Both the position numbers and the translations under genes were made by a program. Under the pieces are notes generated by a model that had not been told where the DNA came from, did not search any database, and saw only the letters and a program-made list of their open reading frames with translations. From NCBI RefSeq assembly GCF_054482525.1, contig NZ_CM137006.1: DNA of 64,000 bases. One strand, written 5' to 3'. This document shows positions 30,354 to 31,647 of the stretch, one piece after another (within the stretch, counting starts at the first letter, position 1; every line of letters begins with the position of its first letter).

Positions 30354-30400
30354 ATTCATTGCCACGTCATCTGTAAGCAATTATTCATATCGTAGACAAC

Positions 30401-30634
30401 TTAGTTAGAGTTAATTAGCTTATCAATCTCTGTAAGAGGTAAAGTTGTCACCTCTGCAACGTCTTCCCGAGACATCCCTTTACTTAGAAAACGCTGGGCG
30501 AATTCCTGTCTTACTTCCTGTCTTACTTCCTGTCTTACTTCTTGATACGCTTCTTGATACGCCTTCTGGAATCCCTTCTCTTCAAACCACTGCGCTAACG
30601 TCTGCCTGGTTTCTCTCCGTGTCTTTATTTCCAT
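30401..30634 (-). CDS. Free-standing small protein homologous to the Rpn C-terminal tail (RpnS-like), 77 aa
   Basis: MEIKTRRETRQTLAQWFEEKG...LSKGMSREDVAEVTTLPLTEIDKLINSN aligns with the last ~74 aa of the adjacent rpnC product. It has its own ATG with an aaggga SD 4 nt upstream and an internal 12-bp repeat array. Confidence 0.6.
   Translation of the reverse strand: MEIKTRRETRQTLAQWFEEKGFQKAYQEAYQEVRQEVRQEVRQEFAQRFLSKGMSREDVAEVTTLPLTEIDKLINSN
30503..30562 (-). repeat. 12-bp tandem repeat array inside the small tail ORF
   Basis: 3 x ttcctgtcttac followed by 2 x ttcttgatacgc, encoding (AYQE)x2-(VRQE)x3 on the minus strand. Confidence 0.8.
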
Positions 30635-30702
30635 ATGTTCCCTTAATTATCTGGTCAGTTAACAATAACAATTATCTGGCTATAACTGATAATACAGACA
30701 AC

Positions 30703-30927
30703 TTAGTTAATCAGTTTATCAATCTCAGCAAGAGGTAAATTTGCCATCTCTGCAACGTCTTCCCGAGACATTCCTTTACTCAGAAGACGCAGGGCGAATT
30801 CTTGCCTTTCCTCCTGTCTTCCCTGCTGAATCCCCTTCTCAATTCCTTTCTCCATTCCTTTCTCCATTCCCTTCTCAATTCCCTTCTCAATTCCCTTCTC
30901 TTCAAACCACTGCGCCAGCGTCATCAT
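30703..30927 (-). CDS. Candidate intragenic RpnS-like small protein (internal in-frame start within rpnC), 74 aa
   Basis: An in-frame Met-Met (residues 241-242, ...GGESMMTLAQWFEEKG...) is preceded by an SD-like gggaggggag with about 7-nt spacing. Separate translation of the tail has been described for Rpn proteins. Confidence 0.4.
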   Translation of the reverse strand: MMTLAQWFEEKGIEKGIEKGMEKGMEKGIEKGIQQGRQEERQEFALRLLSKGMSREDVAEMANLPLAEIDKLIN

Positions 30928-31647
30928 AGACTCCCCTCCCGTTTCCCTGTCTCTCAGCACACCATAAAACAAATCCGCTTGTTCAGTATGACCGCGTTGC
31001 AGCATATAGTTTTGCATGGCAACTAACTGACTTCCGCTAGTGTACCCTTCGTCAATCAGCGTGACCAGTTGCTCCAGCAATAACATTAAGTCGCGCTGGC
31101 GAATATGTTTTTGCAGTAGTTCGAGAATCGCAATCCGCCGATGTTGCATGATTTCGTCATCCGGTGTGATGGTGATATCCACCAGCGGGAAAGGGTTGTT
31201 GTAAACGCGTCGCGCCAGCTCCGGCGAGTAAAACATATCAAACCAGCACATTGAGAGCGGATAAGGTGTGGCCTCGCCCTGATAAAACAGAATCGGCACC
31301 ACCAGCGGCAGCTTATCGTGATCCGCCTCCAGATGCCGGTGCATGGCGGCAATGGCATAGCGCATCATGCGAAAGGTCATTTTCTTATCCGGCTTGCTTT
31401 GATGTTCAATCACCACATGCAAATAACCGGGATTACCCTGCATTTGTACGGAATAGAGTACGTCCGTGCTGTGCCCTTTCAGGCTTTCCTCAATAAAACT
31501 CCCCGACTCAAGATGCAGCGTGTCGAGGTCACACAGTTCGCGTAGCTCCGCTGGCAAATGAATATCCAGAAAGTCGCGAGCCGTTTCCGCATGCATTAAA
31601 AATTGTTTAAACACCGCATCATGCGGTGTGGTACTCGGTGCATCCAT
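30703..31647 (-). CDS. rpnC: Recombination-promoting nuclease family protein RpnC (YhgA-like, PD-(D/E)XK N-terminal domain)
   Basis: 314 aa, MDAPSTTPHDAVFKQFLMHAETARDFL..., located between panC and panD as yadD is in K-12. The C-terminal tail carries EKG(I/M) 4-aa repeats. Confidence 0.85.
   Translation of the reverse strand: MDAPSTTPHDAVFKQFLMHAETARDFLDIHLPAELRELCDLDTLHLESGSFIEESLKGHSTDVLYSVQMQGNPGYLHVVIEHQSKPDKKMTFRMMRYAIAAMHRHLEADHDKLPLVVPILFYQGEATPYPLSMCWFDMFYSPELARRVYNNPFPLVDITITPDDEIMQHRRIAILELLQKHIRQRDLMLLLEQLVTLIDEGYTSGSQLVAMQNYMLQRGHTEQADLFYGVLRDRETGGESMMTLAQWFEEKGIEKGIEKGMEKGMEKGIEKGIQQGRQEERQEFALRLLSKGMSREDVAEMANLPLAEIDKLIN
30821..30904 (-). repeat. 12-bp tandem repeat array inside the rpnC tail
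   Basis: About 6 units of cc(c/t)tt(c/t)tc(a/c)a(t)t (for example cccttctcaatt, cctttctccatt), encoding (EKGI/EKGM)x6 then QQG. Confidence 0.8.

Follow-up and report, generated by a model that had tools for sequence, protein, structure and literature searches.

Why would a bacterial chromosome carry, directly behind the toxin gene rpnC (yadD), a second, free-standing gene for the C-terminal tail of that very toxin? The question is raised by a 64,000-nucleotide stretch of Escherichia coli DNA (contig NZ_CM137006.1 of assembly GCF_054482525.1; termed here the window), which matches E. coli PCN033 at 100% identity and in which a 77-residue minus-strand open reading frame (ORF) lies between rpnC and panC. 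A sequence-only reading of this stretch had taken the small ORF to be an extra RpnS-like gene, that is, a diverged copy of the RpnC tail, and this identification is borne out by homology, by a conserved start codon and Shine-Dalgarno (SD) sequence, by the predicted fold and by the literature. Indeed, the arrangement of rpnC plus spare tail is already known: it was published as rpnCSs by Zhong et al. (2023; PNAS 120:e2307382120; PMC10400941), who describe it in parallel to ypaA (rpnESs) of K-12, and the 77-residue ORF is almost certainly this gene (written here rpnC_Ss)--a second, separately encoded RpnC tail that shows no structural difference from the published one.

Because it has been published, the arrangement of itself matters little, beyond the fact that a further Rpn tail gene, missing from K-12, is present in about 29% of the complete E. 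coli genomes. What is added here is a smaller point, namely that the spare tail almost never equals the resident tail in repeat number. This mismatch makes it possible to ask by a specific experiment whether the spare tail is a second antitoxin, and it points to a way in which the hypervariable tails of the Rpn defence system could arise. The comparison of the repeat numbers of the two tails within one genome appears to go beyond Zhong et al. (2023; PMC10400941); a search for later work (after 2023) on rpnC/yadD or on defence by Rpn proteins returned nothing besides that paper and its commentary.

The resident toxin gene and its intragenic tail

The rpnC gene (30703-31647, minus strand; identified from the ORF list, Pfam and NCBIfam) encodes the 314-residue full-length protein, RpnC_L, which scores 292 bits against the NCBIfam Rpn family TIGR01784. 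Residues 7-207 (31027-31629, minus strand) correspond to the PD-(D/E)XK (YhgA-like) nuclease domain (Pfam PF04754, Transposase_31/YhgA-like; E = 9e-87), and this N-terminal domain is the only one that the scan returned. The first 240 codons share 94% DNA identity with K-12 rpnC, the D..EHQSK nuclease motif is unaltered, and the dN/dS ratio of the nuclease domain is 0.04 (21 alleles). Read from the sequence, the resident intragenic tail, rpnC_S, comprises 74 residues (30703-30927, minus strand) and begins at an internal ATGATG (30922-30927), 5' of which lies GGGAGGGGAG (30931-30940). This leader is identical to that of K-12 rpnC, whose internal start has been demonstrated by ribosome profiling and SPA tagging (Zhong et al. 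2023, PMC10400941); the same start is presumably used in the present strain. Within the resident tail, Tandem Repeats Finder detects a 12-nt (4-residue) array of the KGIE/KGME type (30819-30900, minus strand; period 12, 6.8 copies, 88% matches).

A free-standing second tail

The second tail gene, rpnC_Ss (30401-30634, minus strand), lies directly 3' of rpnC, 68 nt after its stop codon. Its product is homologous to the last ~74 residues of the adjacent RpnC, as the sequence-only reading had claimed: BLASTP aligns residues 5-75 with RpnC residues 236-314 (57% identity, E = 6e-26), and both copies share the C-terminal end ...TAACTAAGTTGTCT. Outside the repeats, 113 of 126 nucleotides (89.7%) are identical, at the upper end of the 85-90% estimated earlier. 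The gene originated by tandem duplication of a tail module whose limits are those of the homology, running from ~10 codons 5' of the rpnC internal start to ~10 nt beyond the stop. In the course of this, the duplicated tail lost the internal ATGATG and would instead use a new upstream ATG (30632-30634) with an SD of its own (TAAGGGA, 30639-30645); both signals had been noticed beforehand. The SD falls within the AT-rich 68-nt spacer (30635-30702, minus strand), which is absent from K-12 and folds no better than shuffled sequences (z = -0.7). Like the resident tail, the free tail contains 4-residue (12-nt) tandem repeats, and these differ in composition from the resident ones, again as first described: Tandem Repeats Finder reports twin adjoining arrays (30503-30567, minus strand; QEVR x3, QEAY x2), one of the QEVR type (30503-30541; 3.2 copies, 100% matches) and one of the QEAY type (30538-30567; 2.4 copies).

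TIGR01784 matches the 77-residue protein at model positions 213-273 of 273 (E = 8.6e-9), which is below the whole-protein cut-off, and its close relatives have precomputed 'weak' matches to PF27070 (HTH_Rpn_C). A Pfam-A scan of the 77-residue protein and RpnC listed no PF27070 (the scanned library may be without that model); the scan found no significant match for the 77-residue protein, nor, at E-values of up to 10, any match to DUF4351 (PF14261), the label given to the stand-alone RpnS genes of some species (PMC10400941). The PADLOC models (2023 library) gave marginal, unrelated matches only (C3a178, 1.9e-5, on the tail; RmrA, 0.004), none of them to an Rpn-named model, and an Rfam scan of 28000-34000 found no family.

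An AlphaFold2 model of the 77-residue protein (pLDDT 86; helices at residues 6-51, 56-63 and 67-76) predicts the RpnS shape, i.e., a long repeat-bearing helix followed by a small helix-turn-helix. Foldseek superposes this predicted three-helix fold, with its long first helix, upon the RpnA-S crystal structure (7TH0; target TM 0.84, rmsd 0.7 Å over 41 columns, probability 0.89); the shortness of the domain keeps the E-value weak (1.8). A sequence search of PDB chains, by comparison, did not find RpnA-S, its matches being noise apart from a designed 'CAP repeat' protein (3e-6); RpnA-S is found by fold search, not by sequence search. The first helix contains the 4-residue repeats encoded by the arrays at 30503-30567, and these vary in number among Ss variants of 57-77 residues.

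How the gene is expressed can be surmised from its surroundings. A consensus scan of 30250-31950 found no minus-strand promoter and no terminator, not even for rpnC, and hence is little informative. Since no terminator-like site was detected between rpnC and rpnC_Ss, the latter is probably reached by read-through transcription, both from rpnC and from the promoter of rpnC_S within it; and its ATG and TAAGGGA, which are conserved in 18 of 19 genomes selected by DNA match, suggest that it probably is translated independently. In the interval that separates the small ORF from the convergent panC, folding identifies a GC-rich hairpin (CTGGCGCC...GGCGCCAG; 30324-30354, not assigned to a strand) with a 10-bp stem (total of -22.4 kcal/mol for the fold of 30320-30405), which is unchanged in K-12, Nissle and three further strains. 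This hairpin, which the consensus terminator scan missed because it is without a T run, is likely to be the shared transcript end of the small ORF and panC.

Distribution among Escherichia genomes

The rpnC_Ss-specific leader (queried as the module-specific 128 nt at 95% identity or more) occurs in 1555 of the 5426 complete E. coli genomes (28.7%), each time as a single chromosomal occurrence that is always between rpnC and panC. Carriers include ST131, Nissle 1917 and the PCN033-type strain of the window. The earlier suspicion that the arrangement is strain-specific was thus correct, as was the statement that yadD of K-12 encodes 300 residues and lies closer to panC: K-12 is without rpnC_Ss, and its rpnC is 903 nt long and 73 nt distant from panC, whereas in the window the stops of rpnC and panC are 383 nt apart. 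In 1553 of the 1555 carriers the spacer and leader, start and SD included, reach 95% identity or more. Beyond E. coli, a protein search finds relatives in E. marmotae and other Escherichia; in E. marmotae the gene is at the same locus, with start, SD and leader retained.

Resident and free tails are out of register

In the window, the repeat-helix insert of the free tail is 26 residues long versus 34 for the resident tail (i.e., 8 residues shorter), and the repeat units are QEAY/QEVR versus KGIE/KGME. This is the rule rather than the exception: of 24 distinct haplotypes, 23 have inserts of unequal length, the single pair of equal length comparing with 1.67 expected under independence, and resident and free lengths are uncorrelated (Spearman 0.05, p = 0.81), where the 24 haplotypes are phylogenetically non-independent and about half of them come from protein-based look-ups, which return intact ORFs only. 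One and the same Ss allele is found paired with S tails of 26 and of 30 residues (loci L022 and L023). Outside the repeats, S and Ss are no more alike within a genome than between genomes (similarity 0.881 versus 0.891; 0.02% of permutations are as low), and concerted evolution of the two tails of one genome is rejected on this ground.

The mismatch matters because of how RpnS proteins are reported to act. The long helix of RpnS pairs with the identical helix of RpnL, and for RpnC a single extra repeat abolishes this pairing; in the published SOS assay (Fig. 4D) RpnCS lost its activity against RpnCL when the two differed by one repeat, RpnCL being blocked only by an RpnCS of equal repeat number (PMC10400941). 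That rule was derived from a single pair of constructs, which differ by one KGIE (PMC10400941), and may not extend to tails of other repeat composition.

Alternative explanations

What, then, is the free tail for? The conclusion that it is a back-up or dosage-boosting antitoxin--one that binds the resident RpnC_L and holds it inactive, as RpnC_S does--is suggested by its full-length homology to RpnS and shared predicted fold, by its position directly 3' of rpnC with no terminator-like site detected between, and by the production of the analogous YpaA in K-12 (PMC10400941). Nevertheless it is unlikely, because the repeat helix is 8 residues shorter than its would-be partner and a one-repeat mismatch abolishes activity (PMC10400941); unlike repeat sequences, 23 mismatched haplotypes, the lack of co-variation and non-repeat regions no more alike within than between genomes likewise count against it. 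Two repeats shorter and built of other repeats, the free tail probably does not neutralise the resident RpnC_L. The same disregard for the resident tail, together with a repeat number of its own that varies among strains (57-77 residues), might instead point to an antitoxin or decoy with another target, perhaps a newly arriving RpnC allele whose helix matches or else a phage factor directed against RpnS; a phage factor is in fact what Zhong et al. suspect as the driver of tail variation (PMC10400941). As the 64-kb window yielded one rpnC locus only and no further Rpn homologue, this proposal is more doubtful still. Among the options offered by the sequence-only reading, then, that of an extra antitoxin for the adjoining RpnC fares poorly, whereas a specificity variant or a tail cassette fits better.

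It is also conceivable that the free tail does nothing at all. A functionless leftover of duplication, drifting toward loss, could owe its intact frame to its short length and to slippage in in-frame 12-nt steps; 71% of the complete E. coli genomes do not possess it, an IS3 insertion disrupts it in strain AF10, and PGAP labels it a pseudogene in several genomes; ypaA of K-12, too, is annotated as a pseudogene. Constraint upon it is weak: dN/dS is 0.40 on its 48 non-repeat codons, versus 0.23 for the resident tail. Yet a ratio below 1, the absence of any frameshift or stop and the intactness of ORF, ATG and SD in 18 of 19 genomes chosen by DNA match, the uniformity of start, SD and leader among the carriers, their retention in E. 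marmotae and the detectable translation of the analogue YpaA (PMC10400941) make drift a rather improbable account. The pseudogene labels stem from comparison with full-length Rpn proteins, ORF, ATG and SD being intact in each such case, and annotation is in any event erratic ('hypothetical protein', 'transposase', 'RpnC/YadD family protein', pseudogene). Taken together, the 1555 carriers, the E. marmotae locus, the intact reading frame and signals, and the dN/dS ratio argue for a real, maintained gene. An assembly artefact, for which nothing speaks beyond the tandem repetition of similar sequence, and which had been named as a possible undoing of the original proposal, is ruled out: the same arrangement recurs in those 1555 complete genomes, produced by many laboratories on many platforms, the copies are only ~90% identical outside repeats that are themselves unlike, and the window matches PCN033 throughout.

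Recombination between the two tail slots

The explanation held here, with moderate confidence, to be the best overall is that rpnC_Ss is a duplicated, probably expressed alternative to the resident tail, with whose slot it exchanges sequence by recombination, rather than a back-up antitoxin. Its product would more readily pair with itself than with RpnC_L, and the gene would represent an alternative tail allele kept in direct repeat with the resident tail, such that recombination between the slots could yield fusions, deletions and mosaics and thereby change toxin and antitoxin specificity together. Products of such exchange are observed. Mosaic proteins join an S leader to an Ss-type body or the converse (e.g., P0010, P0056, P0058 and P0090-92), and two loci (L037 and L038) consist of a single-tail fusion. 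Compared with the Ss slot of L026, a 1.3-kb metagenomic contig that could be chimeric, the K-12 tail with its 3' flank shows 97% identity, rising to 100% in the final ~120 nt; the single tail of K-12 looks like a fusion of the S and Ss slots. K-12, L037 and L038 thereby exhibit the published route by which rpnCSs is lost, namely either deletion or the joining of the N-terminal domain to the Ss region by fusion (Zhong et al. 2023, PMC10400941). The mosaics demonstrate recombination; they do not demonstrate that recombination is the selected function.

A bolder version, which is put forward only tentatively and is rather improbable, regards the free tail as an out-of-register, pre-expressed cassette that serves both as donor DNA for tail switching and as a pool of antitoxin matching the post-switch toxin. 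Such a ready, matching pool would make a switch of specificity safe; and selection, or else the instability of near-identical repeats, would keep the two tails of one genome different, in agreement with the slightly lower similarity of S and Ss within a genome than in random pairings.

Related systems

The intragenic antitoxins (RpnA_S, RpnB_S and RpnC_S; 7TH0) have the same domain and predicted fold as rpnC_Ss, with 4-residue repeats in a long first helix. They differ in that rpnC_Ss is a gene of its own outside the toxin gene and is not forced to co-vary with the toxin tail, and the sampled genomes show no such co-variation. A close parallel is ypaA (rpnE_Ss) of K-12, likewise a free-standing copy of a neighboring Rpn tail with its own start, which arose from rpnE independently of rpnC_Ss and whose protein has been detected by SPA tagging (PMC10400941). 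Like rpnC_Ss it departs from the repeat content of the resident tail, YpaA having one extra 4-residue repeat (KLEG) relative to RpnE_S at 79% identity. Its neighbor RpnE, unlike RpnC, is annotated as an inactive nuclease. Moreover, the start of ypaA is the ancestral internal Met and falls only 12 nt behind the rpnE stop; rpnC_Ss, by contrast, has lost that Met, follows a 68-nt spacer and has a new start 11 codons 5' of the conserved TLAQWFEE, nine codons longer than the resident MM start.

A more distant analogy, and one of arrangement only, is provided by the cdiA and rhs toxin genes, 3' of which lie displaced 'orphan' C-terminal modules that can recombine into the main gene. There, too, a variable C-terminal module is held in direct repeat 3' of the main gene; those orphans, however, are toxin tips with immunity genes, whereas rpnC_Ss is the antitoxin/oligomerisation domain itself.

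Identity of the small ORF downstream of rpnC

The 77-aa minus-strand ORF at 30401-30634, which lies between panC (29468-30319, on the plus strand, as is neighboring panB) and the 314-aa minus-strand ORF of rpnC/yadD (30703-31647), is the gene that Zhong et al. (2023, PNAS, PMC10400941) named rpnCSs, after ypaA (rpnESs), which lies downstream of rpnE. That paper established that internal starts give rise to separate translation products of the Rpn C-terminal tails, called RpnS, and that RpnS blocks the toxic full-length protein, RpnL. Hence the sequence-only reading, which had proposed a diverged free copy of the RpnC tail and a candidate RpnS-like gene, is confirmed in its observation and supported as to identity, but is a rediscovery, because the gene had already been described. 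YpaA was detected there by SPA tagging; a literature search found no later papers on rpnC_Ss.

In BLASTP the 77-aa product matches residues 236-314 of RpnC (57% identity, E=6e-26), and outside the repeats the DNA of the two tail copies is identical at 113 of 126 positions (89.7%). The similarity starts about 10 codons upstream of the internal start of rpnC, where ..RETGGESMMTL of RpnC is aligned with ..KTRRETRQTL of the small ORF, and stops about 10 nt beyond the stop codons, both copies sharing the terminal sequence TAACTAAGTTGTCT. Neither the internal ATGATG nor its GGGAGGGGAG Shine-Dalgarno sequence is retained in the small ORF, which starts at a new ATG (30632-30634) preceded by TAAGGGA (30639-30645). 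Both tails contain 12-nt tandem arrays, the units of which differ: 6.8 copies in rpnC (30819-30900), and 3.2 perfect copies (30503-30541) and 2.4 copies (30538-30567) in the small ORF. On all of these points--homology, DNA identity, start signals and repeats--the earlier sequence statements were right, as was the statement that K-12 rpnC encodes 300 aa and lies closer to panC (73 nt, versus 383 nt in the window).

The window is E. coli DNA; the 1.5 kb around both genes is 100% identical to E. coli PCN033, and panD follows at 31921-32301 (plus strand). RpnC matches the Rpn family model TIGR01784, its residues 7-207 forming the YhgA-like PD-(D/E)XK domain (Pfam PF04754, E=9e-87); over the first 240 codons, which encode its N-terminal part, DNA identity to K-12 rpnC is 94%, with the D..EHQSK motif unaltered. 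(Just upstream of panB, a 411-aa plus-strand ORF at 27314-28549, with a signal-peptide-like N-terminus, looks like a fimbrial adhesin-type protein.)

An AlphaFold2 model of the 77-aa protein, based on 40 relatives (pLDDT 86), consists of a long helix (6-51) and two short helices; Foldseek superimposes it on the E. coli RpnA-S crystal structure (7TH0), giving a target-normalised TM of 0.84 and an rmsd of 0.7 Å over 41 columns, with an E-value that is weak, as the domain is so short. The new HTH_Rpn_C family was not among the matches in a Pfam scan of the protein; close relatives have precomputed HTH_Rpn_C hits. rpnC_Ss is likely co-transcribed with rpnC and also with rpnC_S, on the short internal transcript of the latter, since no terminator-like site was found in the interval from rpnC to the small ORF, this spacer shows no fold of note, and a GC-rich hairpin, shared with convergent panC and invariant among strains, occurs 3' of the small ORF.

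Distribution and conservation

A module-specific probe of 128 nt covering spacer and leader (30575-30702) was found in 1555 of 5426 complete E. coli genomes, always on the chromosome and with at least 95% identity in 1553 of the carriers, among them Nissle 1917 and ST131, APEC, ETEC and O145 strains; K-12 and O157 lack the gene. The arrangement is thus strain-specific, as had been suspected, and an assembly artefact is refuted by the same count. E. marmotae has the same gene in the same place (panD-rpnC-Ss-panC), and related small proteins are on record from other Escherichia. The leader occurs at 1558 places in the 1555 genomes, at least one genome having up to three copies; the surplus copies could represent tandem arrays of free tails.

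It is doubtful that the free tail is a decaying remnant. Its loss from 71% of genomes and its relaxed dN/dS favor decay: the ratio is 0.40 for the free tail (48 non-repeat codons), 0.23 for the resident tail within rpnC and 0.04 for the nuclease domain, values indicating that constraint on the free tail is weak yet present. Against decay, start and leader are conserved, and copies are intact across E. coli and E. marmotae. Nineteen genomes (the window, L002-L011 and L041-L048) were selected purely because their DNA matched, and 18 of them retain the ORF, its ATG and the TAAGGGAAC Shine-Dalgarno sequence; in the exception, AF10 (L042, NZ_OZ546911.1), an IS3-family element (1503-2770) is inserted in the leader, right after ..CAGGCAGAC, and the remainder of the ORF resumes beyond it.

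PGAP calls several intact copies pseudogenes 'missing N-terminus' or 'transposase', because the comparison is made against full-length Rpn proteins. At least four labels occur, the others being 'hypothetical protein' and 'RpnC/YadD family protein'; they vary among RefSeq E. coli copies (L002, L003, L005, L007, L041, L043, L047) that are intact, with conserved ATG and Shine-Dalgarno sequence. In three Logan/metagenome assemblies (L015, L029, L037) a frameshift or stop within the nuclease domain breaks rpnC into two ORFs, the accompanying tail gene or genes being intact, which could reflect either real toxin inactivation or assembly error.

Repeat-length mismatch between the two tails

The modest new result of the present analysis is a systematic register mismatch between spare and resident tails, and this leads to a concrete, testable prediction. 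RpnS uses its long first helix to dimerise and, for RpnC, one extra KGIE repeat in either partner abolishes protection, which is restored when both partners carry it (Zhong et al. 2023, PMC10400941). Insert length was taken in both tails of each genome as the stretch that separates AQWFEE from the ..R[LF]LSKGM motif, which is conserved. The resident tail of the window (KGIE/KGME type) has an insert of 34 aa, its free tail (QEAY/QEVR type) one of 26 aa. Only one of 24 distinct two-tail haplotypes has inserts of equal length, 1.67 being expected on average under independence, and the two lengths are uncorrelated (Spearman rho 0.05, p=0.81); one free-tail allele is paired with resident tails of 26 and of 30 aa (L022, L023). 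K-12 ypaA, the experimentally detected analogue, shares this mismatch: in MG1655 (L036, 1317-1502) it begins 12 nt past the rpnE stop, and YpaA has one more 4-aa repeat (KLEG) than the RpnE tail. (RefSeq labels ypaA a pseudogene and RpnE inactive.)

Taken with the published one-repeat rule, the mismatch argues that the free tail is probably not a spare antitoxin for the adjoining toxin. Of the options raised from sequence, an extra RpnS-like tail gene stands, while a back-up antitoxin for the resident RpnC is disfavored and unlikely; a role as antitoxin or decoy directed at some partner other than the resident toxin is a candidate reading of still lower probability. In their non-repeat part, the resident and free tails of one genome resemble each other slightly less (0.881) than random pairings between genomes do (0.891), the former value falling below 99.98% of permutations in a small sample of 24 haplotypes that are not phylogenetically independent; selection for divergence could account for this, as could a preferential loss of direct repeats that are nearly identical.

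Exchange between the two tail slots

Among database proteins (for example P0010, P0056, P0058, P0090-92) are mosaics in which a leader of resident type (..GGESMM, continuing the reading frame of the nuclease domain) precedes bodies and ends of free-tail type (FQKG/FQKA repeats, ..KLINSN), as well as reverse mosaics, in which the free-tail leader MEIKTRRETRQ precedes K-12-like bodies ending in ..KVINLI. Two loci (L037, L038) are single-tail fusions, with a free-tail-type body directly before panC. The K-12 tail and its 3' flank (L001, strain AB1157, 1122-1448) match, at 97% identity, the free-tail slot (1054-1296) of L026, a two-tail locus on a 1.3-kb metagenomic contig that could be chimeric; over the last ~120 nt the identity is 100%. 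Since the leader of the K-12 tail is nevertheless of resident type, its 3' end (..KVINLI) and 3' flank being of free-tail type, the 300-aa K-12 rpnC looks like a deletion-fusion derivative of a two-tail ancestor, with which the two-tail state in E. marmotae is consistent. Together, the mosaics, the single-tail fusions and the K-12/L026 match indicate that tail diversity probably arises in part from the two direct repeats.
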